Assembly: GCA_965204725.1 (NCBI GenBank)
Contig: OZ242005.1
Coordinates: 3,968,001 to 4,032,000 of the forward strand
Length of the DNA stretch: 64,000 nucleotides
Source: Candidatus Latescibacterota bacterium
GTDB taxonomy: Bacteria; Latescibacterota; UBA2968; UBA8231
Direction of reading: 5' to 3'
Part shown: in pieces, positions 1 through 18,089 of the stretch
Layout of the letters: the number at the start of each line of letters is the position of its first letter
How positions within the stretch are numbered: the stretch's first letter is position 1
Position numbers and translations under genes: made by a program
The notes under the pieces: generated by a model
The model's input: only the letters and a program-made list of their open reading frames with translations
Told to the model about the DNA's origin: nothing
Database searches by the model: none

Positions 1-2
1 TC

Positions 3-1514
3 TGTGGGTGCAACCGGAACGATGGCCGACCGTGCGACCGTCTGGTAGAAGAAGGTCGGGATCAGGGTGAGGGCGACTAGGAGGGCGATGATGAGGGTTA
101 GCCCTAGGGCCACTACAAACGGTTCGAAATAACCTTGTAATTCTCGGGAGAGGAAAAACACCGGCAGAAAGGCCCCCAAAGTGGTCAGGTTAGAGACGAC
201 GATAGGATGAACCCCATCGCGCAATCCCGCGGCCACCGCCGCCCGCAAATCCCCTTCGGGGCCGCAGGATTGGGTGCGGCGGTGGAGATAGTCGTAGATG
301 ACAATGGCGTTGTCCACGACCAGCCCAAAACCGATAGTAAAGCCGGCGAGGGTAGCGAGGTTTAGGTGAATGCCGAGGGCAAAGAACAACACGACTGCCC
401 CTAAGACGGACAACCAGATGGAGCTCAAGATGAGCAAGACCGTTTGAAGCCGCCTGAAAACCCCGATCAGCACCAACGCAATAAACGCGATGGAAAAGGC
501 CGACCAGCGCAGCAGAAAGCGGAAGTCCCGCTCTAGCTCGGCTCCCTTGTCGTGCAGTGCGATGATCTCAAAGCCCTCGGGCAGGTGCTGGGAGAGTTCG
601 GCTACTTTCTCCCGGATGTGCTGGGAGGCGCGGATCATGTCGCTACCGGGTGTTTTTTCAAATTGGATGGCAATTGCGTTGCGCCCGTTGATTCGGTAGA
701 GCGACGAAGGTGGGCCGGGCTGGTAGCGCACGGTCGCCACGTCCCCCGTGTACACGGGGCGGCCGTGCTCCAGCCGCTTGAGTGGCGCGTACTTGAGGGT
801 CTCCAAGTCTGCGAGGTTGCCGCGAAGCTGGATGCTACTGAGTGTGCCTTGGCTCGGTGTCTCGCCGAGGAAACGGGTCTGGATGCCCTGAGCGGCTAGT
901 GCTTGGCTCAGTACACCTTGGTCTATTTGCCAGTGCTGCGCCAAGAGGTGGTTCATTTCGAGGAGGATGTGCTGTTGGCTGCCGCCGCGCACGGTCACCT
1001 GCTCGACGCCCGGCACGGATTGCAAGGGCAGCCGCAAGTGCTCGTCTGCGTATTGGCGCAGGACCGCGGAGTCTTCGCGGCCAAGGAGCATTAAACGGAC
1101 GAAGTTTGGGTTGTTCAGCTGATCGGGATCGGTGTGCTGAATGCGGGGCGGCGAAGCACCGAGCGGCATTTGGCGGCGGAACGAATACACCTTTTCGGCT
1201 AGTGATAGCTCGGCCAGTTGTATGTCTGTATCGGGCGCGAATTCAGCGGCGATGTACGCACGCCCCTCGGAACTGGTTGAGCTCAACAGGACCACGCCCC
1301 GCAGACTCTGCACGAGCGACTCCAAGGGCGCGGTAATCTGCGACTCAACGGTGAAAGCAGAAACCCCAGGCCACTCAACGCTCACGGTGAGTTGGGGAGC
1401 GTCTAATGGGCCGCCGATGTCAATAGGTACCAGCCGAAAACAAACCAGCCCCAATGCCAACACCGCCACTCCGGCTACGCCCACGGTCACGGGCCTGTCC
1501 AGCAACTTGTGCAT
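3..1514 (-). CDS. AcrB/MdtC-type RND efflux permease subunit 2 (5' part; runs off window edge)
   Basis: Not in ORF track (no stop in window). Manual translation from ATG 1514: MHKLLDRPVTVGVAGVAVLALG...TVESQITAPLES...GFGLVVDNAIVI, matching RND N-terminal and TM4 motifs; starts 2 nt after stop of the upstream RND gene. Confidence 0.9.
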   Translation of the reverse strand, partial: MHKLLDRPVTVGVAGVAVLALGLVCFRLVPIDIGGPLDAPQLTVSVEWPGVSAFTVESQITAPLESLVQSLRGVVLLSSTSSEGRAYIAAEFAPDTDIQLAELSLAEKVYSFRRQMPLGASPPRIQHTDPDQLNNPNFVRLMLLGREDSAVLRQYADEHLRLPLQSVPGVEQVTVRGGSQQHILLEMNHLLAQHWQIDQGVLSQALAAQGIQTRFLGETPSQGTLSSIQLRGNLADLETLKYAPLKRLEHGRPVYTGDVATVRYQPGPPSSLYRINGRNAIAIQFEKTPGSDMIRASQHIREKVAELSQHLPEGFEIIALHDKGAELERDFRFLLRWSAFSIAFIALVLIGVFRRLQTVLLILSSIWLSVLGAVVLFFALGIHLNLATLAGFTIGFGLVVDNAIVIYDYLHRRTQSCGPEGDLRAAVAAGLRDGVHPIVVSNLTTLGAFLPVFFLSRELQGYFEPFVVALGLTLIIALLVALTLIPTFFYQTVARSAIVPVAPT

Positions 1515-1515
1515 G

Positions 1516-4500
1516 TCAGTCTCTCGCCCGAGCGACGACCGAGTAGAGAATGGGGACGGCGATCAGGATCAACAAGGTTGATAGAGAAATGCCGCCGACA
1601 ACCGCCCACGCCAAGGGACGGCGCAACTCGGCGCCACTGCCGCTAGACAAGGCCATGGGCAACAAGCCGCAGACCGTGGTCAAAGTCGTCATGCAGATGG
1701 GGCGCAAGCGCTTTTGTCCGGCTTCCACGATGGCTTGGCCTAGGTCGCCGCTGGCCCGGTAGTGCCGGTGGATAAAATCGGTTTTGACGATGGAATCGTT
1801 CACTACAATTCCCACGAGGACGATACATCCCAACAAGGACATGATATTTAGTGAGTTACCCGTTAGCCACAGGGTACAGACGACCCCAATGGACGCGAGG
1901 GGCACGGCCACGACGATCACAAAAGGAACGACGAGGGACTCAAACTGGGCGGCGAGAATGAAATAGACCAATACGATGGAAATGGAGAGAATGAGGTACA
2001 GGTTTTGATAGTGTCCCTGCAACTCGGTGTGCTGGGTGCCGATCTCAATCCAGTATCCGGCGGGGATGGCTAGCTGGGGCAGGAATTCGTTTAGCCGAGC
2101 CTTGGCTTCGGCAAAGTCGAGGCCCTGTAAGGAGGCCGTGACGGCGACGGTGCGTGCTTGGTTTTCGCGGTGGATGGCTTCGTAGCCCTCGCTCGGTTTG
2201 AGGCGGACCAACTGAGCAAGCGGAACGGCGACAAGGCGGCCTTGCGTTCTGACTGGGTACTGCATGTTGAGGACGCGCCACAAGTCGAGTTCGGCGCGGT
2301 GCTCAGCTCGCACCTTGATGTCTATGCGATCGGCAAAATTGACGAACTGGGTGGGCGTACTGCCTTGTAGTTGGCGGTTGATAAAGTCGGCAAGTTCGGC
2401 GAGGCGGATGCCGTACTGTAGGGCCGCTTCCCGCTGTACCTCGACGTTGAACACTTGCTTGCTGGCCTGCAAATTAGCGCGGGCGTTGGCAAAGCCGGCG
2501 TCCCGCTGCATAAAATCTGTGATCCGCTGGCTCAAATCGGCGAGGACGGTTAGCTGCGGCCCGATAATTTTCAAGTCGAATTGAGTCTGGTGCTGCTGAA
2601 AGAGCTGCTCAAAGGCCGATTCCGGTGGCGACAGGGAGAGGGTTAGGCGACTGAACTCCCCAAAGGCCGCTTCGATCCGCTCGGCGACGTTTGCGCTTTC
2701 GCGGCCCTCGGCAATCTCGATGTCTAGCACCGCTTTGTTCAGTCCGAGTCGGTACTGTCGGTCGAGGATTTCGCATGTGATGCCGATGGATGAGAGCACG
2801 GACGCGACGCCGTCCTCGCGCAGCAGGCGGCGTTCCAGTTTGGTAACTTCCGCCGCAGTGGTCGGCAGATTGGTCCCTGGCGGCAGTTCGGCGCGGAGGA
2901 CTAAATGCTTCCTATCGACGGTGGGTATGAGCTCTCGCTCTAGATCGGTGGCTAGATAGGTACTCAGTGCAAGGAGGACGAACAGTGTGCAGAAGACTTT
3001 CCAGCGATGGCGCAGGGCGCGGACGAGGCCGTACTCGTACAGCAAGAAAAACTTATTGAACAGGTATTGAAAGAGGTCTATGGTGAGGAGGAAAGGGGTG
3101 GCTGCTACGCGCCCAATGCGGTAAAGCCGCCCCGTTGTATTAGGTGCGTTCCAAGACCGAGCCGACAGCATGGGCAGTAGCATGATCGACACGATCAAAG
3201 AGGCTGCCAACGCCAGAGAGATGGTGACGGCCTGCTCGTAAAAGAGTGCCCCAGCGATCCCTTTGACGTACACCAAGGGCATGAAAACCGACATGGTGGT
3301 AAGGGTCGAAGCCGTGATGGCCAAGCCCACCTCGCGGGTGCCGCGGACTGCTGCTTCGCCCGGATCGTGAGACATTTCGCGGTAGCGGTAGATGTTTTCC
3401 AGCACGACGATGGAGTTGTCAACTAAGATGCCGATGCCTAAGGCGAGGCCCCCCAACGACACAACGTTAAAGTGGATGTCGAGAAAGTACATACAGATAA
3501 AGGTGGCAATAATGGAGATCGGTATGGACAGCCCCACGATGAGCGGGTTTTTGAGATCGCGAAGAAAGTAAATGAGAATGACAAAGGCAAAGAGTCCGCC
3601 CAAGTACAGAGATTGTAGGACGTTGTGTATGGATTCGCTGATGAACTCGGCTTGGTCGAAGACCGGCACGACGTCGAAGTCCGCGTACTCTTGCGAAAAG
3701 CGATAGAGGCTGTCATACACTTTTGCGGAGGCTTCCACGGTGTTGGTGCCGGCCTCCTTGAACACATACAGGGTAATAACTTCGTGTCCATTCAAACGGG
3801 TGTAGCCGGTGCGTTCCGCATAGCCTTCTTCGACGCGGGCCACGTCCTGTAAGCGGATTAGTTTGGGCGTTAGCTGCACCGGGGTTTGGCGGATTTGTTG
3901 TACGTCGGTGAACTCGGCTTGTATGCGCAGGGGAAACTGGGCAAAACCGTCGCGGATCGAGCCGCCGAAGTGGGTTATGTTGAACTGCTTGAGACTGGAT
4001 TCCACCTCTGCAAAGCCGACGTTATAGCGCAGGCTTTTCTCGGTGTCGAGATGGATTTGGATCTCGCGGTCTAGCCCGCCAGCGACCTGCACGTAGGCCA
4101 CGCCATCGATCTGCTCTAACCGGCGTTTGACGACGGCCTGCGCCACTTCCTTCAGTTCCATGAGGGCGGCTTGGTGGTCCCAGGTGGAGCGGGGCTGTTC
4201 GACCCGATCGCCGGTGACCACGAGCGTCATAATGGGGGCGGCCGAAGGATCGAAGCGCAAAATGGTAGGGCGGCCGGCCGTTTGCGGCAGGTGGCCTTGA
4301 TCGAGGCTGCTGCGTGCCTTGATGAAGCTGAGGTCCATGTCGCTGCCCCAGTTGAACTCGACCTCGACAAAAGAGATGCCGTCTTGCGAGATGGACTTGA
4401 GCCGCCGTACGCCGCTTATGGTGCTGAGAGATGCTTCGATGGGACGGGTGACATGTTCTTCTACGTCGCGGGCACTTAGGCTGGGTGCGTCCGTGCGGAC

Positions 4501-4638
4501 GATGAGCCGGGGAATGTCGATGTCGGGGAGGAAATCTACGCCTAGCCGAGAGAGAGAGTATAAACCCAAGAGGAGCGCGGCGAGAAAGCAAACCGTAGTG
4601 GCCACGGGTCGATAGACGGCAAAGCGCACGATACGCAT
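1516..4638 (-). CDS. AcrB/MdtB-type RND efflux permease subunit 1
   Basis: Likely start ATG 4638 (MRIVRFAVYRPVAT); motifs VEEHVTRPIE, GILVDNSIVVLENI, GIVVNDSI, RLRPICMTTLTT; about 1040 aa. Confidence 0.95.
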   Translation of the reverse strand: MRIVRFAVYRPVATTVCFLAALLLGLYSLSRLGVDFLPDIDIPRLIVRTDAPSLSARDVEEHVTRPIEASLSTISGVRRLKSISQDGISFVEVEFNWGSDMDLSFIKARSSLDQGHLPQTAGRPTILRFDPSAAPIMTLVVTGDRVEQPRSTWDHQAALMELKEVAQAVVKRRLEQIDGVAYVQVAGGLDREIQIHLDTEKSLRYNVGFAEVESSLKQFNITHFGGSIRDGFAQFPLRIQAEFTDVQQIRQTPVQLTPKLIRLQDVARVEEGYAERTGYTRLNGHEVITLYVFKEAGTNTVEASAKVYDSLYRFSQEYADFDVVPVFDQAEFISESIHNVLQSLYLGGLFAFVILIYFLRDLKNPLIVGLSIPISIIATFICMYFLDIHFNVVSLGGLALGIGILVDNSIVVLENIYRYREMSHDPGEAAVRGTREVGLAITASTLTTMSVFMPLVYVKGIAGALFYEQAVTISLALAASLIVSIMLLPMLSARSWNAPNTTGRLYRIGRVAATPFLLTIDLFQYLFNKFFLLYEYGLVRALRHRWKVFCTLFVLLALSTYLATDLERELIPTVDRKHLVLRAELPPGTNLPTTAAEVTKLERRLLREDGVASVLSSIGITCEILDRQYRLGLNKAVLDIEIAEGRESANVAERIEAAFGEFSRLTLSLSPPESAFEQLFQQHQTQFDLKIIGPQLTVLADLSQRITDFMQRDAGFANARANLQASKQVFNVEVQREAALQYGIRLAELADFINRQLQGSTPTQFVNFADRIDIKVRAEHRAELDLWRVLNMQYPVRTQGRLVAVPLAQLVRLKPSEGYEAIHRENQARTVAVTASLQGLDFAEAKARLNEFLPQLAIPAGYWIEIGTQHTELQGHYQNLYLILSISIVLVYFILAAQFESLVVPFVIVVAVPLASIGVVCTLWLTGNSLNIMSLLGCIVLVGIVVNDSIVKTDFIHRHYRASGDLGQAIVEAGQKRLRPICMTTLTTVCGLLPMALSSGSGAELRRPLAWAVVGGISLSTLLILIAVPILYSVVARARD

Positions 4639-4649
4639 GGCCGGTGCTC

Positions 4650-5816
4650 TCAGCGTTGGACGACCACGACCTTGGCGTCGTGGGCTAGATTGTAGTGCCC
4701 GAATACGATAAGTTCTTCGCCTGCTTCTACCCCTTCGGTAATCTCGATAAAGTCGTCGTTTTCGAGGCCGGTCTTGACGTAGCGCCATTGGGCTAGCCCG
4801 TCTTGGTGGATGAACACTAGCTTGCGGTCGTCGCGGGTTAGGAGCGCGTCGCGCGGTATGAGCAGCCGCTGCTGAAAGGCTTCGACGCCGATTTCGAGCC
4901 GGGCGAACATACCGGGTTTGATGCGCCGGTCGGGGTTGGCCACTTGGATCAAGATGCGGCAAGTTCCGCTTTCACTATCGACTACCGGACTGATGGCTTT
5001 GACCGCACCCACAAACGAGTCGTCGGGATACGCGTGCAACGCGATGGTTGCTTGGGCACCGACGTGTAGCAGGCGCAGTTCGCTTTCGAGGCTGCTGACT
5101 TCGAGCAGCAGCGGGTCGAGTGCCAAAAGCTGCATCAGGGACTGGCCTTGGGTGACCCAAGTGCCGAGGGTTACTTCCACTTCGGTAACAGTGCCGACAA
5201 AAGGTGCTGTAATAACTGCATTTTTGCGGTCGAGGTCGGCCTGCTTCAGGGCGAGTCGAGCGCGGGTTAGGCCCGTAGTGCTGGCGATCCATTCTTTGGG
5301 GGTGCCGCTGGCAAACAGCGATAGAGCTTCTACGTCGTTGATGTTGGTGGTGTCGGCTTTGGTCTTGATGAGGTCGCGTGCTTGGTGCCCGCGGTCCAAT
5401 TGGCCGCTCAACAAGGCTATGGAGGCGTATTCCCGTAGGGCGCGCGTCATCTGGTCCTTTGCCTGTAGGTACGCGATGGCATAGCGTTCCGCGTCTAGCT
5501 CCAAAATAGTATCTCCCTTGCTGACGAAGCGACCTTCCTCGACGTTGAGGCGGCGCACTTGGCCGGCTATTTGGGAGACGATAGCCGTCTCCATTTTGGC
5601 CTTGAAGACGCCTGTCGAGGTGATTTTCTGAACGAGGTCGCGGTGCTGGACGGTGTCTATGGCGACCGGAGTGTTGGGTGGTTCAAGTTCGGGGAGAGTG
5701 TCGAGGGATTCATCGCGGGGATTTTGCGATGGCGCGGAATCGCTGAAAATCGCAAATAATAGGGTGAGTAGCCCAAGCGCGAGAGCGATATATAGGAGTT
5801 TCTTTAGTGTCGTCAT
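4650..5816 (-). CDS. RND efflux periplasmic adaptor (membrane fusion protein)
   Basis: N-terminal TM, lipoyl-like halves (VEEGRFVSKGD; ITAPFVGTV), IKPGMFAR motif; directly upstream of RND genes. Confidence 0.93.
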   Translation of the reverse strand: MTTLKKLLYIALALGLLTLLFAIFSDSAPSQNPRDESLDTLPELEPPNTPVAIDTVQHRDLVQKITSTGVFKAKMETAIVSQIAGQVRRLNVEEGRFVSKGDTILELDAERYAIAYLQAKDQMTRALREYASIALLSGQLDRGHQARDLIKTKADTTNINDVEALSLFASGTPKEWIASTTGLTRARLALKQADLDRKNAVITAPFVGTVTEVEVTLGTWVTQGQSLMQLLALDPLLLEVSSLESELRLLHVGAQATIALHAYPDDSFVGAVKAISPVVDSESGTCRILIQVANPDRRIKPGMFARLEIGVEAFQQRLLIPRDALLTRDDRKLVFIHQDGLAQWRYVKTGLENDDFIEITEGVEAGEELIVFGHYNLAHDAKVVVVQR

Positions 5817-6871
5817 TTTGTAAGCTCGCGATCTTTGCCATGGACAAGATCAACGCTCAGTTGCGATCTGCTCAAGGTTTGAGAGTGAGCGGCTAGAACA
5901 TCTAGGGCCTTCCGTTCTTGGATGGCGATGGCGTGAAGCCGGGCCTGAATGCGCGGGATTAGCCTTGGCGTCTCCTTGACTACGCCTTTGAAGCACAGAT
6001 TTTTGGCGACAAACCAACTCTGAGAAATCGACTCGAATTCCCGGCCGAGAGCACTTAGGCCATCAAGGCCGCAGATCCGACTCGCATAGTGGAGAAAGGC
6101 ACCGTGTCCTTCTCGGTTCAGGGCGATCTCGAGGAACAGTTCAGTACATTGATTCAGGCGTGTTTTGAGAAGTTGCTTTTCGCATTCCGTCCATATTTCT
6201 ACGTCCTCGGCGAGCTGCTCAATCCCGGCCACGCCCGGTACGCAATTGGCCCGTATGCTGGTTGCAGACATACTGGCGATATTGCGTTGCAGAATGGCGA
6301 CTACATGGCGCAGACGCACCCTAGGCGGCTCGTCCGGTACGTCTAGCCAGAGCCAGTCAAAGCAGGGCTGGTCCGCGCCAGCAATAGCCCGCGTGTCCCA
6401 ACACGATAGAAAGAGGTCCAAGGGGATGTCTCGCGCCGAAGGCTGCCACGGCGAAGGATCTATCAAATGAACGGTCCCAGCCCCATCATCATACCCGGCG
6501 ACGATGCACTGATGGTCTGAGTGACGCTGGCGCGGATAGAACCCGGCTCCCGCTAGATGGAAGACGTCTAGATTGATGGATACAGGCGCATCTGCATCCA
6601 ATCGTTTTTTGACTTGGTTCCACGCCGCCCTACCATCATCAGAAGTCTCGTCGAATGGCTTAATGCCGAACCGCTGGATCATGGAAAAGAGGGGAGCTGG
6701 GCGACTCCTGATGTTGAACGATTCGCCTCTAAAGTAGAAAAAGTCCCAGTTGTAAAAAGCGGGCAGCGACGGTTCCCATTGGTAGTAGCGCAACAAGCTG
6801 TCGAGCATGACGTAGAGGCAGTTGTAGTGCCGATTAGTGCAGAAGGGAATACCGCTAATGCGCTTTTTCAC
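5813..6871 (-). CDS. BtrH-like protein (BtrH_N papain/C39-like fold plus DUF4872-like C-terminus), putative ACP-dependent acyltransferase or peptidase
   Basis: HYNCLY (Cys), HQCIVAGYDD (His), HLIDP (Asp) triad; C-terminal GVAGIEQLAE helix region. GTG 6871 overlaps upstream stop (GTGA); ORF track start is 6892. Confidence 0.75.
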   Translation of the reverse strand: MKKRISGIPFCTNRHYNCLYVMLDSLLRYYQWEPSLPAFYNWDFFYFRGESFNIRSRPAPLFSMIQRFGIKPFDETSDDGRAAWNQVKKRLDADAPVSINLDVFHLAGAGFYPRQRHSDHQCIVAGYDDGAGTVHLIDPSPWQPSARDIPLDLFLSCWDTRAIAGADQPCFDWLWLDVPDEPPRVRLRHVVAILQRNIASMSATSIRANCVPGVAGIEQLAEDVEIWTECEKQLLKTRLNQCTELFLEIALNREGHGAFLHYASRICGLDGLSALGREFESISQSWFVAKNLCFKGVVKETPRLIPRIQARLHAIAIQERKALDVLAAHSQTLSRSQLSVDLVHGKDRELTK

Positions 6872-7524
6872 AACGAACCTGCTTCTTGACACAAGGTCAA
6901 CGCGAATATGTGCATGGATGGATTATCCGGCATTACGAGATGCGATAGCAGCGGAGTTTCTTTCAATTCAATTACCTGATGCCAGATTCCTGCTTCAATA
7001 AGCGTCTCCTGCATCTGGTAGTCCTCGCCCGGCGGGGTTATGCCGAAGAGGAATACGTGGGGAGTGAGACTATCGGGAGAGATCAGTTGGCCCATAAATG
7101 CCTCGCGCTCTCCGTACTGAAGCCCTTTGTAATGCGAGGCGTCACTGAGCCCGAGAACTGCTTGAGTGCGGGAACCGTCCGGCGAGTGCAACAGGACGAT
7201 TTCGGCCGTGGCCCGCCAGTCGCATAGCCCCAGAACGTGGAGGGCGCGATAGCGTCCTATTGGCAGTGGGGTTTCTTGCACCTCGCAGGCGATGTTGTCG
7301 TGCGCTCCATCGCTTTTATCTGGAAAAACAAACGATGTGCCGTTGCAACGGACGGTCGCTCCCGACGCCGGGAGATCCTCCGCCCGAAGGATCGTCCCCA
7401 TCCCGTCGAGTCCGTCGGCGGCTGGGTCGCAGGAAGAGGCGATGCCGGCGTTGTTGAAATAAGGTGCTAGGTTCACAGTTACTTGACCATTAGATCGCAT
7501 ATCTGTTTCCGTTTTTCCACTCAA
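6868..7524 (-). CDS. Hypothetical protein (beta-sandwich-like module resembling accessory domains of glycosidases)
   Basis: Overlaps neighbours at both ends; motifs LAPYFNNAGI, DGLDG, FVFP, DNIAC, YRALHVLG; function not assignable. Confidence 0.6.
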   Translation of the reverse strand: MSGKTETDMRSNGQVTVNLAPYFNNAGIASSCDPAADGLDGMGTILRAEDLPASGATVRCNGTSFVFPDKSDGAHDNIACEVQETPLPIGRYRALHVLGLCDWRATAEIVLLHSPDGSRTQAVLGLSDASHYKGLQYGEREAFMGQLISPDSLTPHVFLFGITPPGEDYQMQETLIEAGIWHQVIELKETPLLSHLVMPDNPSMHIFALTLCQEAGSL

Positions 7525-7793
7525 GGCATAGGCGATCGGGCTGCCAACCGCTGTTCTATGTATGAGGTCAAGGTCCGAACTGAATCGAATAGGTCCACCC
7601 GCAGCTCTTCGTCCTCCACTTCAAACCCGAACTCTTCTTCAAGGGCAAAGACGATCTCTAACGCGGCAATGGAATCGGCGTCTAAACCCTCGCCAAATAG
7701 GGACTCGTCATCGGCGATGTCCTCGGGATTGATCTTGAGTTGGAGCCCTTGGACGAGGGCTTGTTTCACTCGTTGAGCTATATCGTCGCGCAT
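7521..7793 (-). CDS. Acyl carrier protein
   Basis: 90 aa, acidic, GLDADSIAALEIVFALEEEFGFEV with phosphopantetheine Ser in DSI. Confidence 0.93.
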   Translation of the reverse strand: MRDDIAQRVKQALVQGLQLKINPEDIADDESLFGEGLDADSIAALEIVFALEEEFGFEVEDEELRVDLFDSVRTLTSYIEQRLAARSPMP

Positions 7794-9685: not shown

Positions 9686-10170
9686 GGGCCTGCCCCCGCG
9701 TCTGTGGCGACTGGGAATCTGGCCGCCTGCCAAGCTGGCCAACCGCCCGTCAGAACATAGACTTCACTGCGGATCGACTCTTTGACGAGCCGCTTGGCTA
9801 GTGTGTAGCTGCTCCGGCAACCGCCTCCTGAACAGTAAGTGATGACTCGGGTGTCAGCCGGGTAAGACGCCAGTGTTTGGCGCAAGCTATCCGCAGAAGC
9901 ATGGGAAGGCAGGTGCAATGCTCTAGGGATATGACCGTCCTCATAAGCGTGCGTTGAGCGTGCGTCCACAAACACTACGTCGCCTTGGTCGAAAGCCTGC
10001 TTGGCCACGGGCACGGCCAGCCGATGAACGCCCTGCATGGCCCCAAGAGTCACATCGGCCTCTAGTTCCGCTATAGAGAACTGCTTGGTATAGAACCAGA
10101 TCACCCATGCGCTGCCAGCCAGCACGACCAGCCAGAGGATCAGCCCCATTCTGAGTAGCAGGCGGCTCAT
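9682..10170 (-). CDS. Membrane-anchored rhodanese-like protein
   Basis: ATG 10170 with AGGAG RBS; N-terminal TM; FVDARS, YEDGHIPRA, YCSGGGC, LTGGWPAW. Confidence 0.88.
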   Translation of the reverse strand: MSRLLLRMGLILWLVVLAGSAWVIWFYTKQFSIAELEADVTLGAMQGVHRLAVPVAKQAFDQGDVVFVDARSTHAYEDGHIPRALHLPSHASADSLRQTLASYPADTRVITYCSGGGCRSSYTLAKRLVKESIRSEVYVLTGGWPAWQAARFPVATDAGAGP

Positions 10171-10181
10171 GCGGTTTGCTC

Positions 10182-11921
10182 CTAGGCAGCCTCTTGCTGG
10201 TGGTGAACAAACTGGGTGTAATAGCCCGGCTGTTGGCGCAGCACTTCCGGCGGCCCCTGCTCGACCACTTGACCGTTGGACAGGCAAATCACCTCATCCA
10301 CACCTTGTACCGCACTGAGCCGGTGGCTAATTAAGAGAATCGTTTGGTCGCGGTATAGGTGCTGGATGCGCTGGAAGAGGGCGGCCTCGCTTTCGGAGTC
10401 GAGTGCTGCGGTGGCTTCGTCCAAGATAAGCAGGTCCACTGGTTGCAGCAGGGTGCGAGCTAACGCAATGCGCTGGCACTGGCCGCCGGAAAGTTGGACG
10501 CCCTGTTCACCGATTTCCGCCTGCATGTCCAAGCCATTTAGCCCCACTTGCTCGCTCACCCGTTCGACTTCCGCTGGCTCGCACTTGAAGTTCCCGTAGA
10601 GGATGTTGTCTCCTACCGCATCGTTAAGTAGATGAACATGCTGACTGACTAAGCCGATGTGCGCTCTCAATTCGCGCAGGCTTATCTCTTCAAACGGCAC
10701 ACCGTCTATAAGGATGCGGCCTTGATCCGGCTGATAGAACCCACACAACATATTGGCTAGAGTTGTCTTGCCACTGCCGCTCATGCCGACTAAGGCGTAG
10801 CTTTTGCCCTTGACGAGCTTCAGGTTCACACCCTGCAAAATAGATTGGTCTCCGAAGCGGAAGTGAACATCTTGCAGTTCAATGGTGTGCTCATAGACGA
10901 AGGATTTGTGGCCGTTGTGCATCGCCTCTTGAGTGGGCAACTGCATGAATTCCAACACCCGTCGCATAGAGACCAAGCCCCGCACTAAGTCCATGTACAA
11001 ATCGTGTAGTCCGCTAACCGGACCAAACAAACGCGAAGTGTACTGAAGAAAGGCAATGAGAGTTCCGATCGTCATCGCGCCCTGCATTACTTGATAACTG
11101 CCCCAGCCCATGATGAATACTGGAGTTAGAGCCACTAGCCCCGACGAAATCGTGCGCATGGAAGCCGAGTATAGCACGTTGCGCATGGAGAATACGATCA
11201 GATCGTTAAGGGCCGAGCGAAAGCGATGCCTTTCATAGCTGTCGCTGTTGGAAAGTTGTATCAACGGGATGTGACTAAACCGCCCGATAACATAGCTAGA
11301 AAGTTTGGCCCCTTGTTGCTGAATGGATTCGACGACCCTTCTGATCTTGGGCTGAAAATAGAGCAGATTCGCCACAAATAAGGGGAGGACCACGATGGAA
11401 AGCAGAAAAAGGGTGACATCCAGCCAGCACAGGACGGCCACGAGACCTATCAAGGTCAGTACGCTATGTAGAAAACGCATGACACTTGCCGTCAACACCG
11501 ACTGGATTATGCCCACATCGCTGTTGAGGCGGAAGACGATGTCGCCGACGGTATGTCGATGGTGGAATCTGAGCGGCAAGTGCATGAGATGCTGGAACAG
11601 TTCGACGCGGATGTTCCGGACGATGCGGTTGCCGGCCCAAGCGTACAGGTAGTCAGAGGCGAAGGATAGGATCAAACGGGTGATGGTAATACCTAGTAGG
11701 ATGGCGAGGGCAACCAGCAGTGGGTAAAGCTGTTTGGCTGGCACAATTTTATCAATGACGGTTTTTAAAATGTAAGGAGGTGCTAGAGAACCGACTGTGA
11801 TACACAGTACACAGAACAGTACCACAATCCCTTGATACCAATAAGGAATTAGAAAATGCAGGAAAAAGCCGATAGTAAACCGGGCTGTTTTAGTTTTAGG
11901 CGTAGGCATGAGAGATCTCAA
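10182..11921 (-). CDS. ABC exporter, fused permease/ATPase (no C39 peptidase domain)
   Basis: Six-TM domain, Walker A GMSGSGKT, LSGGQ signature, LILDEAT, SHRL. Confidence 0.95.
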   Translation of the reverse strand: MRSLMPTPKTKTARFTIGFFLHFLIPYWYQGIVVLFCVLCITVGSLAPPYILKTVIDKIVPAKQLYPLLVALAILLGITITRLILSFASDYLYAWAGNRIVRNIRVELFQHLMHLPLRFHHRHTVGDIVFRLNSDVGIIQSVLTASVMRFLHSVLTLIGLVAVLCWLDVTLFLLSIVVLPLFVANLLYFQPKIRRVVESIQQQGAKLSSYVIGRFSHIPLIQLSNSDSYERHRFRSALNDLIVFSMRNVLYSASMRTISSGLVALTPVFIMGWGSYQVMQGAMTIGTLIAFLQYTSRLFGPVSGLHDLYMDLVRGLVSMRRVLEFMQLPTQEAMHNGHKSFVYEHTIELQDVHFRFGDQSILQGVNLKLVKGKSYALVGMSGSGKTTLANMLCGFYQPDQGRILIDGVPFEEISLRELRAHIGLVSQHVHLLNDAVGDNILYGNFKCEPAEVERVSEQVGLNGLDMQAEIGEQGVQLSGGQCQRIALARTLLQPVDLLILDEATAALDSESEAALFQRIQHLYRDQTILLISHRLSAVQGVDEVICLSNGQVVEQGPPEVLRQQPGYYTQFVHHQQEAA

Positions 11922-12706
11922 AGATCGGCTAAGATATGGCGGCCTTTTATAATGTCTAATAGGGACACGCCCTCCAGCGTTTTTAACGGCGAATCGGCGA
12001 AGCTGGCGGTCTTAATCTCAAGAGCCGGTAGGTGAATAGAGATGAGTTTCCAGAAAAAGAGTTGGGTGAATTGTTCTCGACCAACTAATGGGTAGTGGCA
12101 CTGGAGAATGGTCTGGCGTTCGTCAACGAGAAAAATCGCCGGCGTCCGCTCGAAGAGAGCCGCATAATCTTCCTCATAGTCCTGTATGGTTCCCACTTGG
12201 TATTTGAGCTTGAACGCCCGTGAAAATTGAGCAGCAGCCGATGGCACTGAGGACAGCGCATAGATGGGCAGTTGAGCTGGATTTTCTATATGGTCATAGA
12301 CATGTTGTAGAGTCTCTAATACTATTTCCAAGCATGGCTGACAGGAAGAGGGATTGAAGAGGACGACGATACAGCCTTGGGTTCCGGCGAAGTTGGTGTG
12401 CAGTGTGTCTTCTTTGACTTGAAATGGGATCGAGGGAAAAGACTGGCCAACCCATTGGCTAGCTTTGAAGGTGCTGATGGCGTAGGTGCGGTAATTCCGC
12501 ATATCTACGAGATAGATTTTGCCGAACCAAGCTACTACGGTAGTCAGGGCGACGAGTTGTAGTAAGTTGGTGGCGACCAACAGCTTCAGTAGTATTTTAT
12601 GTTGCATGGTAGCAACCGACGATTTGGGTGGCCCGGTCCCAGTGCTGGGACCGGACCGCTGCATGACCAAAGTATGGGCCTTGAAGTTAGAGGCCGATCC
12701 TAGCAC
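11918..12706 (-). CDS. Membrane-anchored thioredoxin-fold (AhpC/TSA/TlpA-like) protein
   Basis: Hydrophobic N-terminal segment, VVLFNPSSCQPC (CxxC), RTPAIFLVD cis-Pro region; true start may be ATG 12607 or 12664. Confidence 0.7.
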   Translation of the reverse strand: MLGSASNFKAHTLVMQRSGPSTGTGPPKSSVATMQHKILLKLLVATNLLQLVALTTVVAWFGKIYLVDMRNYRTYAISTFKASQWVGQSFPSIPFQVKEDTLHTNFAGTQGCIVVLFNPSSCQPCLEIVLETLQHVYDHIENPAQLPIYALSSVPSAAAQFSRAFKLKYQVGTIQDYEEDYAALFERTPAIFLVDERQTILQCHYPLVGREQFTQLFFWKLISIHLPALEIKTASFADSPLKTLEGVSLLDIIKGRHILADL

Positions 12707-12897
12707 TTATCGCTCGTTTTGGTTGCGGGAGGAGTGCAGTCATCCCAAATATCCCAGTAATCTATTACGCACTCGTACTCTTCCGTACAAGCGTCGAAAT
12801 ACACTAACTCCCAGTCGCCCCCGTGAGAGCCCTCACGCTCGTAGGCCTGAACCAAGGCGGTGCGCCTGTTTGGGGTTTTCTTGCTGAGTGTTTTCAT
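12700..12897 (-). CDS. Putative RiPP precursor peptide, 65 aa, CLI_3235-like leader
   Basis: ATG 12897 preceded by AAGGAG; MKTLSKKTPNRRTALVQAY followed by EREGSHGGDWELVYFDACTEEYECVIDYWDIWDDCTPPATKTSDKC; embedded in a protease/ACP/exporter operon. Confidence 0.8.
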   Translation of the reverse strand: MKTLSKKTPNRRTALVQAYEREGSHGGDWELVYFDACTEEYECVIDYWDIWDDCTPPATKTSDKC

Positions 12898-12969
12898 GAG
12901 ATTGCTCCTTAGTAAAGAGTGATGAATGATAGAACCAAGGCCCATAATACTGGTTCGTGATAGGATATC

Positions 12970-14130
12970 TTAGTTTATATCAAAGGACAGCGTATATGTC
13001 TCGACCGTGCCATTGGATATCTCCGCCCTTTCACTCGACGGTTCTCTCCATATATACAGATGCCCCTGCCAAGCGGCGACACTGTTCCAAGGGGCCATGT
13101 TGGACACGAGAGACTCTACCTTCGCTCTATCGAACGTATATGTCTCCATGTTAGACGAAGAGGTAAGATCGTAAAGTATCCACCATTGTGCATCTCTAGC
13201 CACTTGGTGAGAGACAAATAGATACCGATCGTCTATTAGGGTCATGTTTTTGAGCGTGGTCATCTCCAATCCATACATACCCTCAGACGAACCTCGCCCG
13301 ATGCTATGGTAGCGTTCAGGCAAGGAGACGAAGCCCTCTGGGCGCAGACCAAACTGCCGGATGATCTGTCCGGTGTCGGCGTCGATTTCCTTGACGAGGT
13401 AGTCGTTGGGGCCCAAGTAATACAGCCGATGCCGCGCTGGACTGTAGCGCACTTGGGCAAACGCGTTCATGCGGAAGGAGACAAACTGCTGTTCATCGGT
13501 GGACAGGGGGGTGCGATAGAGCGGTTCCCAAGTCGTGGGATCCAAACTCTGTATCTCCATGATCTTCATCGGGTTTGTTTTCAGCAGAAACACTTCGCCC
13601 GCCCGGCCGATTAAAAGCCGACTTCCCTTGAACGAACGCGTCCCATCTATGTACTGCCCTTGACGATCATAACGGACGATCTGGCCGAACGTCTTGTCAA
13701 GGATATATAGCCGGCCGTGTGAGTCTATGGCCATATTTCTAGGGGAACCATACTCGCCAGGGCCGCGTCCTTGCTGGCCAAAGGAGCGAATATAATGTCC
13801 ATCCGTGCGGCTAAACTCATGGGCTTGGTCACCGATGCTATCCGTGATCAGCAAGGTGCCCTCTGGCGAGAAGCTCAGCCAGCGTACACGTCCGATACCC
13901 GGGGAGTCCTCATCAAAGGCGAGTTCGATCTGCTGTTGAAAAATCACGTCGACCTCGCCGACATATTCAACGGGCGTTTGCGAAATGTTGGTCTCATCGA
14001 CTTCGCCGACTTGGTAGGCGGTGTACCACGCTTTGACGCTGTCGCGGATGTCGCTCCACAGTCCGGCGTCGGCTGCCGTGCTACCGAGGGCGACGAGGAA
14101 TGTGCAGATGTGAAAATTTCTGGCGTTCAT
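12970..14130 (-). CDS. Secreted 6-bladed beta-propeller (NHL-like) protein
   Basis: Signal peptide ending AADA; FGQQGRGPGEY motif; NHL-like repeats (MAIDSHGRLYILD, IVRYDRQGQYI). Confidence 0.8.
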   Translation of the reverse strand: MNARNFHICTFLVALGSTAADAGLWSDIRDSVKAWYTAYQVGEVDETNISQTPVEYVGEVDVIFQQQIELAFDEDSPGIGRVRWLSFSPEGTLLITDSIGDQAHEFSRTDGHYIRSFGQQGRGPGEYGSPRNMAIDSHGRLYILDKTFGQIVRYDRQGQYIDGTRSFKGSRLLIGRAGEVFLLKTNPMKIMEIQSLDPTTWEPLYRTPLSTDEQQFVSFRMNAFAQVRYSPARHRLYYLGPNDYLVKEIDADTGQIIRQFGLRPEGFVSLPERYHSIGRGSSEGMYGLEMTTLKNMTLIDDRYLFVSHQVARDAQWWILYDLTSSSNMETYTFDRAKVESLVSNMAPWNSVAAWQGHLYIWREPSSERAEISNGTVETYTLSFDIN

Positions 14131-14240
14131 AAGGTTTCGATCCTTTCGTTACTATAAAAATAGCAATCGTCGCGGTGCTTGTATATCGGGTGATCACCTG
14201 ATTTTTGGCTGATTCTTATCGGGTGATCACCTGATTTTTT
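14126..14240 (-). promoter_or_regulatory. Promoter/5'UTR copy 1 with two 18-bp palindromic operators (14185-14202, 14218-14235)
   Basis: ATCGGGTGATCACCTGAT twice with 33-bp period; on minus strand followed by TATACA-17bp-TATTTT (preceded by TG) and AAAGGA RBS. Confidence 0.75.
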
Positions 14241-14262
14241 AGCCAATCAGTACCGGCGAGCT

Positions 14263-14742
14263 TCAAGAGCCAGCCTCCGCGCCGGTTGCTGTAGGATACC
14301 CGGACTTCTTCCAAATCGGCCAGCCTCCCTTCAGGATGTAGATTTTCAGCTTGAACTCATCGGTTGATGCGCTGAAGAGGCGAGTGGTTAAGTTGCCGGT
14401 CTCGCAAACGGCTCGCTCGCAATAGACGATGATGCGAGCATCAGACGCTAAGACTTGGCGCAGGTGCTCAACAGGAGCATCATAAGGCAGATGCAACGCA
14501 CTGGGGATATGACCGGATTCGTATGCGGATGTTGAGCGCAAATCCACAAAGAGGGCGTCGCCGCGGTCAAGCTCCTGTTTGGCCTCGGCCGGGTCAATGC
14601 GGCTTGTTATAACTTCTGACGAGGGCTGACCTGAGCAGGACCAGAGGGCATACCCGCTGGCCAATGCGCCCAGCCATAGGAGGAAGCCGGCCTTGGTGAG
14701 GAGCCGCGGCCACGCTCGGCCTTTCTTGCTACGCTTTTTCAT
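14263..14742 (-). CDS. Second membrane-anchored rhodanese-like protein (paralog of 9682-10170)
   Basis: FVDLRS, YESGHIPSA, YCERAVC, LKGGWPIW; starts MKKRSKK at 14742 (TAAGGA RBS); in-frame upstream ATG at 14823. Confidence 0.82.
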   Translation of the reverse strand: MKKRSKKGRAWPRLLTKAGFLLWLGALASGYALWSCSGQPSSEVITSRIDPAEAKQELDRGDALFVDLRSTSAYESGHIPSALHLPYDAPVEHLRQVLASDARIIVYCERAVCETGNLTTRLFSASTDEFKLKIYILKGGWPIWKKSGYPTATGAEAGS

Positions 14743-14818
14743 GAGCTTGATCCTTAAAGAGGGAGGAGTGATGCAGGCGACGAGGAGCGTGCGGTCGTGA
14801 GAATGAGAATCGGTAGTG

Positions 14819-14930
14819 TTCATAAGGCTCCGGTCCTTTCGTTGTGATAAAAATAGCAATCGCCACGGTGCTTGTATATCGGGTGATCACCTGATTTTTG
14901 GCCGGTTCTTATCAGGTAAACACCTGAATT
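14819..14930 (-). promoter_or_regulatory. Promoter/5'UTR copy 2 with two palindromic operators (14878-14895, 14911-14928)
   Basis: Near-identical to 14126-14240; ATCGGGTGATCACCTGAT and ATCAGGTAAACACCTGAA with the same 33-bp period. Confidence 0.75.
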
Positions 14931-15125
14931 TTTCCGAGAAAACGCTGATATTGGCTTGTGGCTGTGTGCGCGTCAGGACATAGACCACGCCACGATAGGT
15001 GATGGTTTGGGTCGCCGCCGGAGTTTATCGCAGGCGAGCTGCATGGGAAGGGTACAGGGTGCGGGAGGGACTAAGACCTCGATGGCAGGAGGCCTAGGCG
15101 TAGTCTCAAATGACTGCTGCTGTGC

Positions 15126-15776
15126 TTAGAGCGGCTCGTCCTCCCCATCCATCAGCCCTTCTCGGATCGCGTACGCTGTCAACGCGGTCGCACTGTGCAA
15201 GTCGAGCTTATCCATTATGTGCTGGCGATGAGTGCTGATGGTCTTTTCACTCACGTGGAGTGCCTCGGCTATTTGCGCGGTTGTCTTTCCTTCGGCGACG
15301 CATCGCAGCACTATGCGCTCGCGTGCCGTCAGGGGAGAAGGTTTGCTGGGGATAGTAGCGTTATGCGCGTGACTGGGGACGATGGGGTTGGTCAAGTGCG
15401 AACTCACGTACTCGCGGCCGGCTTGGACCTCCCAGAGTGCTTCTACCAACTCGTTGATGAAATTCGTTTTCAGCAGGTACGCCGAGCCGCCTGCCTCGAA
15501 TAGGCCATCTACAAAACGCTTGTCCGCGTGTTCCGACAGCACGACGAACTTAATATGCGGATACGTGGCCCGTATCTGGCGCGTCACCTCGATGCCGCTC
15601 AGGTCGGGTAGTCCTATGTCCACGATCACAATGTCGGGTTGATAGGCGGTGATCAAGTCAATGGCCGTGCGACCATCGGCGGCCTCGCCGATTACCTCAA
15701 TCCCGCTTTCTCGTTCGAGATGCGCGTACATTACTTGGCGCACCATAATATGGTCTTCCACTAGAAAAATCTTCAT
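15126..15776 (-). CDS. NarL/LuxR-family response regulator
   Basis: REC domain (VEDH, DIGLPDLSG, YLLK) plus LuxR HTH (LTARE...GKTTAQIA...SEKTISTHR). Confidence 0.95.
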   Translation of the reverse strand: MKIFLVEDHIMVRQVMYAHLERESGIEVIGEAADGRTAIDLITAYQPDIVIVDIGLPDLSGIEVTRQIRATYPHIKFVVLSEHADKRFVDGLFEAGGSAYLLKTNFINELVEALWEVQAGREYVSSHLTNPIVPSHAHNATIPSKPSPLTARERIVLRCVAEGKTTAQIAEALHVSEKTISTHRQHIMDKLDLHSATALTAYAIREGLMDGEDEPL

Positions 15777-16846
15777 GAGGAATGGCCCTCCTCTTCAGCC
15801 AAGGTGCTCGGAAGCGTTATCAGACAGCGCGTACCTTTTCCGAGCGTCGATTCGATCGTCAAATGACCACCGATATGGAGCAGATGCTCTTGAATACTGA
15901 ACAGACCGAAGTGATTGCCTTGGATCATCTGGTCCAGATGCGCGACATTAAAGCCCGCGCCCGCGTCTTCTACCACCACCTGTAATTGGTCTCCGTCTCG
16001 ACGCAGGGAAACGGTGGCTTGGTCTGTGTTGGCGTGCCGAGCGACATTGACCAGCAACTCGCGAATGGACCTGTACACTAAGCCGCGTATGTCGTGGCTG
16101 TGTATCTCCCATTTATCCTCGGCTTCCACGCGCACGGTCAACCCGTCCTGGGAATGGACGAGGTCGCCAAGAGCCTCTAGGCCTGGTACGAACCCTATGC
16201 CGTAGAGCACGGGTGAACTGCTATCGAATGTCATGTCCCGGATGATGTGAGCCATCTCGTCAGTTTTTTTCTCCAATGCATCAATCAAGGCTTCGCGCTC
16301 TGTGTCGTCGGCCTGCCGCAGTGCAGCGATATTGACCTTCGACAGTACCAGCATCTGCCCGATTGAATCGTGGAGAGCACTCCCAAGGCTCACCCGCTCG
16401 TGCTCCCTGTCGATTAAGAGCTTGGCCGCCAGCGTCTGCAACTTCTGGATATGTCTCTCCATGCGCCTGTGCTGGCTGATTTTGCGAATAACGCCTTGAT
16501 AGTATATGGGGGTCCCGTCCGCGGCTCGCCAAATCGAGGCCGTTATTAGCGAATCGAAGTGGTGCCCGGTGCGGGTTCTAAACGTCGCGGTAAAGTCGCG
16601 CACGAACTCTTCCCGTTCAATCTCTTCCCGAAACCGCTCGTACTCGTCTAGACTCGCGCAGAGGCTGCGAATGTTCGAGCCGAGCAAGTCGGCGCGTTCG
16701 TAGGCAAACAGGACGTTGGCGGCCTTGTTGGCATCGACGATGGTCCCGTCCTGCTCGGCAATGACGAGAGCGTCGGGCGACGCTTCAAATAAGCCGCGAT
16801 AGAGGGCTGGGTCGCGTCTCAATTTCTTCAGCTTAGGCTTGCACAT
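15773..16846 (-). CDS. Cytoplasmic PAS sensor histidine kinase (HisKA_3/NarX-type)
   Basis: ATG 16846 with AAAAGGTGG RBS; PAS (LFEASPDA...ANKAA), H-box LHDSIGQ, ELLVNVARHA, EDAGAGF, FGLFSI; no TM segment. Confidence 0.9.
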   Translation of the reverse strand: MCKPKLKKLRRDPALYRGLFEASPDALVIAEQDGTIVDANKAANVLFAYERADLLGSNIRSLCASLDEYERFREEIEREEFVRDFTATFRTRTGHHFDSLITASIWRAADGTPIYYQGVIRKISQHRRMERHIQKLQTLAAKLLIDREHERVSLGSALHDSIGQMLVLSKVNIAALRQADDTEREALIDALEKKTDEMAHIIRDMTFDSSSPVLYGIGFVPGLEALGDLVHSQDGLTVRVEAEDKWEIHSHDIRGLVYRSIRELLVNVARHANTDQATVSLRRDGDQLQVVVEDAGAGFNVAHLDQMIQGNHFGLFSIQEHLLHIGGHLTIESTLGKGTRCLITLPSTLAEEEGHSS

Positions 16847-16904
16847 GGATCCACCTTTTATGAGTTCGGGTATCCTGCTGCTAGTCCCGCTAGCCGATTC
16901 AAAA

Positions 16905-17531: not shown

Positions 17532-17558
17532 CCCAAGTTGGCCCGGTCGGCTGTTTAA

Positions 17559-17588
17559 TTGACAAGGATAGACAAAATTTTTTAATAT
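17559..17588 (+). promoter_or_regulatory. Putative sigma70 promoter of the cox-like operon
   Basis: TTGACA at 17559-17564 and AT-rich TTTAATAT at 17581-17588, 45 nt upstream of coxG. Confidence 0.5.
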
Positions 17589-18067: not shown

Positions 18068-18089
18068 TCCGATTCGATAGGAGGCGACT

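Follow-up and report, generated by a model that had tools for sequence, protein, structure and literature searches.

We analyzed a 64,000-nucleotide stretch of the genome of a Candidatus Latescibacterota bacterium (NCBI GenBank assembly GCA_965204725.1, contig OZ242005.1; G000:C1:3968001-4032000 of a 5.4 Mb assembly in two contigs), hereafter called the window. In it we found a minus-strand operon organized around a 65-aa precursor peptide and a protein in which a subtilisin-like S8 protease domain is fused to a DUF1611 domain. Sequence comparisons indicate that the system is real and widespread; they define a leader family for the first time and assign a 218-aa gene of the operon anew, whereas the central chemistry proposed below is putative. 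In our judgment there is an even chance that the operon encodes a leader-guided system that makes and secretes a small, Cys-rich, bacteriocin-like peptide, probably in a modified form.

Gene calls were taken from a list of open reading frames (ORFs) with their translations, and families were assigned by Pfam and NCBIfam scans. Fifteen minus-strand genes share the same orientation, 12 of them tightly packed, and all genes named in an earlier reading of the letters alone (the original prediction) were recovered on that strand where they had been placed. Stop/start overlaps of 4-25 nt, which it had also noticed, occur at seven junctions: those between a thioredoxin-fold protein and an ATP-binding cassette (ABC) exporter, the exporter and a rhodanese, the rhodanese and the S8-DUF1611 fusion, the fusion and an acyl carrier protein (ACP), the ACP and the 218-aa protein, the 218-aa protein and a BtrH-like protein, and the BtrH-like protein and a membrane fusion protein (MFP). 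The order S8-DUF1611, ACP, 218-aa, BtrH-like, MFP and two resistance-nodulation-division (RND) transporter genes was found again in nine related loci (L002-L009 and L021), so the arrangement is not due to chance.

The precursor gene (12700..12897, minus strand, as for all operon genes below) has its ATG at 12897, with AAGGAG 7 nt ahead of it. The N-terminal third of the peptide is a basic leader of about 20 aa with Ala-Tyr at its end, and the remainder is an acidic core, rich in Trp and Tyr, with four Cys. The peptide has no match in Pfam and matches no NCBIfam family at E <= 0.01. Short ORFs at the same position in close relatives have the N-terminal third in common with it, but not the rest. 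We built a hidden Markov model (HMM) from nine leaders and iterated it over the ORFs of 30-260 aa on both strands of 61 related loci. The model matched 36 ORFs in 30 of these loci, every one encoded on the same strand as the S8-DUF1611 gene. Across 20 aligned leaders, Met1 and Tyr19 do not vary, and Ala18 shows a conservation of at least 90%. Among the 53,113 small ORFs of the genome itself, the single match below E 1 was this precursor (E 1.1e-7). The cores are hypervariable across the leader-bearing ORFs and have no fixed Cys-Trp pair. The leader HMM had no match in 31 loci, several of which end at contig ends, while others hold weaker, visibly related leaders (e.g., cluster 50 in L018 and L045).

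As judged from these alignments, the 65-aa ORF is a real leader-bearing precursor. The original prediction had read it in this way and would have been abandoned had homologous loci lacked a conserved short peptide, which they do not. Two features that characterize a peptide that is ribosomally synthesized and then modified post-translationally (RiPP) are thus found here, namely a gene-encoded precursor whose leader is conserved and whose core varies, and a leader peptidase in the cluster, the S8 domain with its conserved Asp/His/Ser triad and predicted cleavage. For the third, modification of the core, RiPP status depends on the candidate enzymes described below. We also noticed a 39-aa ORF in L060 from Erysipelotrichaceae (L060:3510-3629), located between an ACP-like gene and the S8-DUF1611 gene and downstream of a radical SAM gene, which encodes a Lys-rich leader ending in Gly-Tyr and a Cys-rich tail. 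From this ORF, the leader logic may be common to several phyla.

The fusion gene (7778..9685, also given as 7778-9742) encodes an S8 domain (PF00082, E 1.2e-26) followed by DUF1611_N (PF17396, E 2.2e-6; 28.4 bits) and DUF1611 (PF07755, E 2.7e-12; 47 bits), the latter two above the Pfam cut-offs. The original prediction had proposed checks with PF00082, PF07755 and PF14399 (BtrH_N), and each gave a match in the protein where it was expected, at E 5e-12 for BtrH_N. Among the NCBIfam models, the protein matched QhpE (E 5.9e-43; 146.8 bits, cut-off 165) and, over residues 281-644, TIGR04066 (E 2e-33; 115.9 bits, cut-off 200), in both cases below the cut-off. The Asp/His/Ser triad, the oxyanion Asn motif and a Walker-A-like motif of DUF1611 are conserved in 55 fusion sequences. 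Only about 19 residues lie between the start of the protein and the catalytic Asp, so neither a signal peptide nor a prodomain can precede it.

We modeled residues 262-636 with AlphaFold2 (mean predicted local distance difference test score, pLDDT, 88.3) and compared the DUF1611 model with known structures using Foldseek. The best matches were 2G0T (E 1.2e-14) and 2OBN (E 1.9e-13), both structural-genomics DUF1611 entries, and 7XRJ (E 3.9e-13), followed by far weaker matches to G-domains, succinyl-CoA synthetase alpha subunits and Mur ligases. The sole named enzyme among the DUF1611 fold matches is 7XRJ, with the PDB title 'N-acetyltransferase DgcN'; going by this title, we take DgcN to be an N-acyltransferase that uses acyl-CoA.

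The fusion family comprises at least 626 proteins at E <= 1e-3 among the 8000 candidates scored, and S8 and DUF1611 occur together in all of the best 120 of these matches. Of 168 Latescibacterota genomes, 83 have a fusion match, with up to seven in one genome; among the 52 high-quality genomes 25 have one, as do 22 of 49 genera, and the family extends to Gemmatimonadota, Bacteroidota and Firmicutes. Records titled Latescibacterota or Latescibacteria supply 54 of the 61 related loci; the titles of the remaining seven read Gemmatimonas, Palauibacter, Bacteroidetes, Kryptoniota, Erysipelotrichaceae, Clostridia and 'uncultured bacterium'. An ABC exporter match is present in 49 of the 61 loci and an ACP match in 47.

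Three minor observations concern the same family. A longer open frame in L077 (such frames reach about 900 aa) adds 260 N-terminal residues in which no Pfam domain was found. Selenocysteine encoded by a single in-frame TGA in distant fusion homologues was considered and dropped, as the TGA was the gene's own stop in the three cases examined. The genome of the window also carries two partial fusion paralogues, G000:C1:4843040-4844281 (L064), covering residues 6-421 at 54% identity, and G000:C1:3754276-3754911 (L065), covering residues 418-630 at 64% identity and followed by ACP-like and AziU2-like ORFs; rearrangement may have split one locus into these two, or they may stem from an assembly artefact, the estimated contamination being 9.97%.

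The ACP gene (7521..7793; PF00550, E 2.6e-10) starts directly after the fusion gene in 41 of the 54 loci with room for it. All 39 of 39 ACP sequences keep Ser41, which stands in the usual Asp-Ser motif. A complex prediction that paired precursor and fusion protein scored 0.39 (runs 0.39, 0.48 and 0.30), and the highest of three controls scored 0.01. Of 80 solved complexes, 58 reached the mark, as did 2 of 110 mismatched pairs, and scores that pass the mark at <= 0.60 comprise only 7 of the 80 solved complexes and both of the passing mismatches. The runs agree in at least 74% of contacts, with a partner pLDDT of at least 44. The modeled complex weakly backs the pairing of fusion protein and precursor.

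The two genes downstream of the ACP gene overlap by 25 nt. The first (6868..7524) encodes the 218-aa protein, which has no match in Pfam or NCBIfam and retrieved only unnamed clusters from the ESM Atlas. Its AlphaFold2 model (mean pLDDT 92.5) is almost all beta, and Foldseek matched it to the AziU3/U2 complex entries 7WUW and 8GS1 (E 2e-14, template modeling score, TM, 0.78-0.83) and to nothing else closely. Consistent with the fold, a profile of the 218-aa family (65 members) matches AziU2 (Azi28) at E 1e-47. The second gene (5813..6892) encodes the BtrH-like, papain-fold protein, with BtrH_N (46.6 bits, cut-off 29.7), DUF4872 (E 2.1e-8; 34.5 bits, cut-off 28) and an overlapping Peptidase_C39_2 match (E 4.4e-5). 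A search of the PDB with this single sequence gave nothing below E 0.2; the family profile, by contrast, matches AziU3 (Azi29) at E 5e-11 over 200 residues that include the His and Asp motifs. These profile and fold matches identify the overlapping genes (5813-7524) as an AziU2/AziU3-type pair. The original prediction was right to list an unknown and a BtrH-like protein here, but it missed their relation as a pair. The 218-aa protein is likely the partner subunit of the BtrH-like enzyme.

In an alignment of 14 full-length rows and one fragment, Cys25 and His124 of the BtrH-like protein are kept in every full-length row, and 12 of the 15 rows have Asp136; the Cys-His-Asp assignment follows the spacing of Cys11, His128 and Asp144 in CtaG (PMC12865890). 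According to that paper, CtaG, BtrH and AsbE have a Cys-His-Asp triad in common and use carrier-protein-bound acyl donors. The window protein resembles them in its BtrH_N and DUF4872 domains, its kept Cys and His and its adjacent carrier protein (PMC12865890), and on these grounds it is a candidate carrier-protein-dependent transacylase; the one indication of transfer of an ACP-borne acyl group is the adjacent ACP with its invariant Ser41. It differs from them in two respects: their acceptors are small molecules or carrier-bound and belong to non-ribosomal pathways, whereas the only evident acceptor in the window is a ribosomal peptide, and the window enzyme has an AziU2-like partner. The same source gives AziU2/U3 as the closest solved fold to CtaG and calls it functionally unrelated (PMC12865890); the pair is described as an aziridine synthase (PMC12865890, PMC12559475).

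A full HMMER search with the 218-aa family gave 482 representative clusters at E <= 1e-3. Its members occur as free-standing proteins of about 190 aa, as C-terminal domains of proteins of about 520-540 aa, and as accessory domains of large proteins. Of ten larger members scanned, three carry BtrH_N (P0125, P0155 and P0171) and four carry glycoside hydrolase domains. In the latter, the AziU2-like domain lies inside large GH10, GH92, GH2 and GH38 proteins (P0135, P0144, P0185 and P0192), where its part could be that of a general binding module and not of a catalyst.

Most related loci hold a 344-aa protein without a Pfam match (U344) and no AziU2-like partner. U344 is encoded after or near the ACP gene in 24 loci and never occurs together with the BtrH-like protein (0 of 24). 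By hhalign, U344 aligned with the BtrH-like protein around the His motif (probability 41%, E 2.7e-4 over 228 columns) and with a wider BtrH alignment (94.3%, E 1e-7 over 52 columns); its profile had no match in the PDB, so the link to BtrH comes from hhalign. Taking into account the 50 loci with at least 3 kb on each flank, a BtrH-fold candidate (BtrH-like or U344) is present in 34 and a GNAT gene in 10, the latter mostly directly ahead of the fusion gene.

The other genes of the operon vary with the type of cargo. At 13 loci the precursors are short (54-84 aa in total) with at least three Cys in the core, and at 17 loci the cores are of other kinds, in most cases 120-140 aa long with many Gly, Ala or acidic residues. 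A propeller gene is present at 13 of the 13 Cys-rich loci versus 1 of the 17 others, and a rhodanese gene at 11 of 13 versus 1 of 17. The reverse holds for CAAX-protease or small Zn-ribbon membrane genes (0 of 13 versus 14 of 17) and for HlyD genes (0 of 13 versus 10 of 17). Given the relatedness of the loci, the Fisher p-values for these associations, 1e-7 to 1e-3, overstate the signal; the pattern is a clean one. Cys-rich cores travel with the propeller, rhodanese, thioredoxin-fold protein and RND genes. The original prediction had called the propeller, rhodanese and redoxin correctly but did not see that these three make up a cassette linked to Cys-rich cores. As a further observation, the genome G089 has seven fusion-protein matches, and its loci L012, L018, L036, L041, L048 and L052 carry differing cargo types, which points to a large, diversified arsenal held by one genome.

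In the window, the propeller gene (12970..14130) encodes a secreted, six-bladed beta-propeller (DUF5128, E 2.4e-11) with a signal-like N-terminus. It is 37-64% identical to its closest kin, compared with 83-85% for the fusion enzyme, which indicates that propeller and core diverge together. In L021, L036 and L038, precursor genes take turns with propeller genes. The thioredoxin-fold protein (11918..12706, start codon uncertain) has a CQPC motif and is membrane-anchored by an N-terminal hydrophobic helix; it has no Pfam match, and hhalign related it to an AhpC/TSA-type cluster that carries PF00578 (probability 97.4%, E 1.2e-11). MauE genes are present in related loci. The rhodanese (9682..10170, also given as 9682-10287; PF00581, E 8.8e-19) is anchored by an N-terminal hydrophobic helix as well. 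The ABC exporter (10182..11921; PF00664, E 2.3e-44; PF00005, E 2.5e-34) is of the MsbA/HlyB type and has no peptidase domain. At the other end of the operon are the MFP (4650..5816; HlyD_D23, E 3.7e-28), the first RND transporter (1516..4638; ACR_tran, E 5.4e-222) and the N-terminal 504 aa of a second one (3..1514, from the ORF list), which crosses the left edge of the window, continues to L001:18155 and is 83-89% identical to the RND genes at the same position in L002-L005 and L021. This gene content fits export by ABC and RND pumps and periplasmic thiol chemistry, as the original prediction had supposed.

The original prediction had also linked the operon to the clostridial Cys-rich peptide system defined by TIGR04065, TIGR04066, TIGR04068 and TIGR04069. 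Kinship with that system held, through the TIGR04066 match and through the Firmicute loci L060 and L062, which carry a radical SAM gene, an ACP-like gene and the same S8-DUF1611 fusion. Membership did not: TIGR04065 had no match to the precursor (NCBIfam, E <= 0.01), TIGR04069 was absent among the 17 generic ACP models matching the ACP at E <= 0.01, and the best score for TIGR04068 (CcpM) in the genome was 82.4 bits, against a cut-off of 500, about 64 kb away. Since all four NCBIfam models miss or stay below their cut-offs, the operon is, by the curated models, not a member of the clostridial TIGR04066 system; it is a radical-SAM-free, fused, diderm relative of it.

PMC10731318 describes the Paenibacillus SacP23 cluster with a CLI_3235 precursor, an ABC transporter, a TIGR04068 radical SAM protein, TIGR04066 and TIGR04069 proteins and a separate subtilisin, with roles given only by analogy; the functions of TIGR04066 and TIGR04069 in the clostridial system are putative as well. 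The window operon resembles the clostridial/Paenibacillus system in its Cys-rich precursor with a short leader, its subtilisin, its DUF1611-type TIGR04066-like protein, its small ACP-like protein and its ABC exporter (PMC10731318). Unlike that system, it has no radical SAM maturase, its protease and DUF1611 are fused, and it adds the AziU2/AziU3-type pair, the rhodanese, the thioredoxin-fold protein, the propeller and the RND genes. No experimental role for TIGR04065, TIGR04066, TIGR04068, TIGR04069, CLI_3235 or DUF1611/PF07755 proteins was apparent in the full-text literature, a body judged mostly by titles and with most subscription journals and supplements outside its coverage. The DUF1611 titles, on Dickeya phages and on cell length, look unrelated, and the papers with PF07755 and similar names list results of genome mining.

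Genome-wide profile searches gave 15 radical SAM, 4 AMP-binding/AMP-ligase, 12 OEP and 1 phosphopantetheinyl transferase (PPTase) matches, none of them inside the window, which agrees with the earlier statement that radical SAM, acyl ligase and PPTase genes are missing from it. The radical SAM gene nearest to the operon, 15 kb to the left, was ruled out as its maturase, being MoaA (348 bits, cut-off 284). A radical SAM, ligase or TolC gene had been sought to the left of position 1, and none is there. The last gene of the operon is the second RND gene, and beyond it follow a convergent M10 peptidase gene with a Por/T9SS C-terminal sorting domain (L001:16477-18153) and then a penicillin amidase gene; the convergent gene indicates that nothing of the operon is hidden on that side.

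Among the related loci, a radical SAM/SPASM gene adjoins the fusion gene only in L053 (Bacteroidetes), L060 and L062 (both Firmicutes), and none of the radical SAM/SPASM genes of L053, L060, L062, L010 and L011 reaches the TIGR04068 cut-off. In L010 and L011, whose fusion enzyme is 61% identical and whose gene order is the same, a radical SAM/SPASM maturase gene (L010:1796-3403 and L011:2275-3882) lies just upstream of the propeller gene on the same strand, with 8 kb separating it from the fusion gene. Thioether-forming maturases give the best scores for the L010 enzyme (SCIFF 247, PapB 239 and QhpD 228 bits), and nif11-type models also score among the best, all below the cut-offs. Some members of the subfamily, as these two loci suggest, may add thioether cross-links.

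Taking into account the gene content and the predicted folds, we propose the following course of events. The S8 domain would cut the leader in the cytoplasm, probably after Tyr, so that P1 would be Tyr, P2 Ala and P4 a hydrophobic residue. Such residues suit the pockets of subtilisins. The DUF1611 domain may then load or present an acyl group on the ACP, or bind its donor, and the BtrH-like/AziU2-like enzyme would move this group to an amine of the peptide, most simply its new N-terminus. The ABC pump would take the peptide to the periplasm, where redoxin and rhodanese would form its disulfides, and the MFP-RND pump would expel it via a TolC-type outer-membrane channel encoded elsewhere. The propeller could be the core's cognate partner, in the role of immunity protein or folding helper, and the two-component system encoded upstream would regulate the operon. 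The ACP-dependent acyl transfer is what we infer from the neighboring genes; the single PPTase encoded elsewhere in the genome (C1:2716302) speaks for it, as a source of ACP phosphopantetheinylation. We further suggest, tentatively and with some doubt, that the S8-DUF1611 protein, the ACP and a BtrH/AziU3-fold enzyme might form a general 'cut-and-cap' machine that reads one leader, removes it and at once puts an ACP-borne acyl or aminoacyl group on the new N-terminus of nearly any cargo.

Several points weigh against the proposed course of events. No acyl-activating enzyme (AMP-ligase, ketosynthase or FabD-like) was found in the operon by Pfam scans and a genome search for AMP-binding proteins. 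The modification of the peptide is itself presumed from sequence, the part of DUF1611 as a loader is a guess from one characterized relative, cleavage after Ala-Tyr is a prediction, and the modeled complex of fusion protein and precursor backs their pairing weakly. Cores at sister loci reach 120-140 aa with very different composition, and such long, varied cores fit unmodified bacteriocins as well as they fit generic end-capping. An ACP match is missing from 14 of the 61 loci, so the S8-DUF1611 protein can work without an adjacent ACP. Finally, the closest solved relatives of the pair, AziU2/U3, are described as an aziridine synthase and not as a transacylase (PMC12865890, PMC12559475), and BtrH_N resembles C39 peptidases, so the BtrH-like protein could be a second protease.

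Some of these points lead to the alternative that survives best, which we still consider unlikely. The product would be an unmodified, disulfide-bonded, class-II-like bacteriocin; the S8 domain would remove its leader, DUF1611 and the ACP would bind the leader, act as a chaperone or gate the ABC exporter as a module of it, and the BtrH-like protein would be a second, C39-like peptidase. The hypervariable cores, some of them 120-140 aa, agree with this, as do the immunity-like CAAX and small Zn-ribbon membrane genes at sister loci, the Peptidase_C39_2 match over BtrH_N, the lack of an acyl-activating enzyme in the operon and the 14 loci without an ACP match. However, a mere scaffold would not need the Ser41 that is invariant in all 39 ACP sequences, in 41 of 54 loci the fusion gene is followed directly by the ACP gene, and a BtrH-fold protein or a GNAT recurs nearby. 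The characterized BtrH-fold enzymes, moreover, are transacylases that use carrier proteins (PMC12865890).

Instead of acyl transfer, the AziU2/AziU3-like pair could carry out AziU-type chemistry, an intramolecular substitution or cyclization, with the peptide or an ACP-bound intermediate as its substrate. AziU3/U2 reportedly makes aziridine by sulfate elimination in azinomycin biosynthesis. In both systems, two genes side by side encode an all-beta protein (about 200 aa) and a BtrH-fold protein (about 350 aa), and the likeness shows in profile matches of E 1e-47 and E 5e-11 and TM values of 0.78-0.83. The window genes overlap by 25 nt, and the two domains are fused elsewhere. In contrast, the Pfam and NCBIfam scans of the operon genes revealed no sulfotransferase, amino-group carrier protein or other azinomycin pathway gene, Cys25 and His124 are kept in all 14 full-length relatives as in the transacylases, and most related loci have U344 without an AziU2-like partner. 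We regard this chemistry as improbable.

Slighter still is the prospect that the operon matures a periplasmic two-subunit protein like quinohemoprotein amine dehydrogenase, in which the S8-cut, ABC-exported peptide would join the Sec-exported propeller. The best NCBIfam match of the S8 domain is QhpE, although its score remains below the cut-off, and PMC7876137 describes QhpE as removing the leader in the cytoplasm before export by the ABC transporter QhpF. The predicted window step thus resembles that of QhpC/QhpE/QhpF, where a cytoplasmic subtilisin-like protease strips the leader of a small, Cys- and acid-rich peptide ahead of ABC export (PMC7876137). The one-to-one alternation of precursor and propeller genes, the propeller at 13 of 13 loci with Cys-rich cores, the SPASM radical SAM enzyme of L010 and L011 with its 228 bits to the QhpD model, and the MauE genes in related loci point in the same direction. 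Against it, the cores are hypervariable and lack a fixed Cys-Trp pair, the window has no equivalent of QhpA, QhpD or QhpG, and the propeller matches DUF5128 and not QhpB, itself absent from the window. The qhp genes, for their part, include no counterpart to the DUF1611, ACP and BtrH-like genes, and the RND pump suggests that the peptide leaves the cell.

That the ACP, DUF1611 and AziU2/AziU3-like genes make a separate small molecule unrelated to the peptide is the least probable reading, since, although AziU3/U2, BtrH, AsbE and DgcN all act on small molecules, DUF1611 is fused to the leader-type protease in all of the best 120 family matches, leader-bearing ORFs occur on the same strand at 30 of 61 loci, and the operon holds no other small-molecule biosynthetic genes.

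The proposed route of leader removal followed by acylation of a peptide amine resembles that of the N-acylated RiPP lipopeptides (lipolanthines, goadvionins, lipoavitides and aphotorhaptins) and of the selidamides (PMC13647313). The acyltransferases named for them are all GNAT enzymes (PMC13647313), whereas the candidates here are a papain-fold enzyme, an ACP and a DgcN-like domain; some sister loci of the operon also carry a GNAT. The main text of that 2026 paper on RiPP N-acyltransferases names no enzymes other than GNATs for the known acylated RiPPs, and the terms BtrH, papain and 'acyl carrier protein' do not appear in it (PMC13647313). If the 'cut-and-cap' proposal is true, the biosynthesis of ribosomal peptides would gain, in the BtrH-like protein, its first papain-fold transacylase that depends on a carrier protein, and the Firmicute families TIGR04066 and TIGR04069 would be given a function. 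Were the ACP step to act on the peptide, it would be new enzymology for ribosomal peptides, with a leader tolerant of very different cargo and hence attractive for engineering. The operon gives the first concrete, testable roles for DUF1611-type TIGR04066 proteins, their ACP partners and the BtrH_N-fused AziU2-like domains of many genomes, in a host group of uncultured bacteria without known natural products.

Upstream of the propeller end of the operon lie three further minus-strand genes, which the original prediction had described as a second rhodanese and a two-component system. They encode the rhodanese (14263..14859; PF00581, E 1.7e-15; start codon uncertain), a LuxR/NarL-type response regulator (15126..15776; Response_reg, E 3.4e-23; GerE, E 3.7e-20) and a PAS histidine kinase (15773..17020; PAS, E 1.4e-13; HATPase_c, E 3.2e-13; HisKA_3, E 7.3e-5; start codon uncertain). 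To the right of the operon (window 16905-20936) are a gene for a MobA-like NTP transferase and ORFs of 144, 154 and 790 aa. With this MobA-like gene on the right and the MoaA gene on the left (L001:4628-5677), the neighborhood looks like one of molybdenum-cofactor enzyme genes. The G+C content is 0.49-0.54 over window positions 11001-14000, which hold the ABC, redoxin, precursor and propeller genes, compared with 0.56-0.64 on either side, and this stretch coincides with the part of the operon that diverges fastest between relatives. The DNA is present in sequencing runs labelled sponge metagenome, one of which may be its source.

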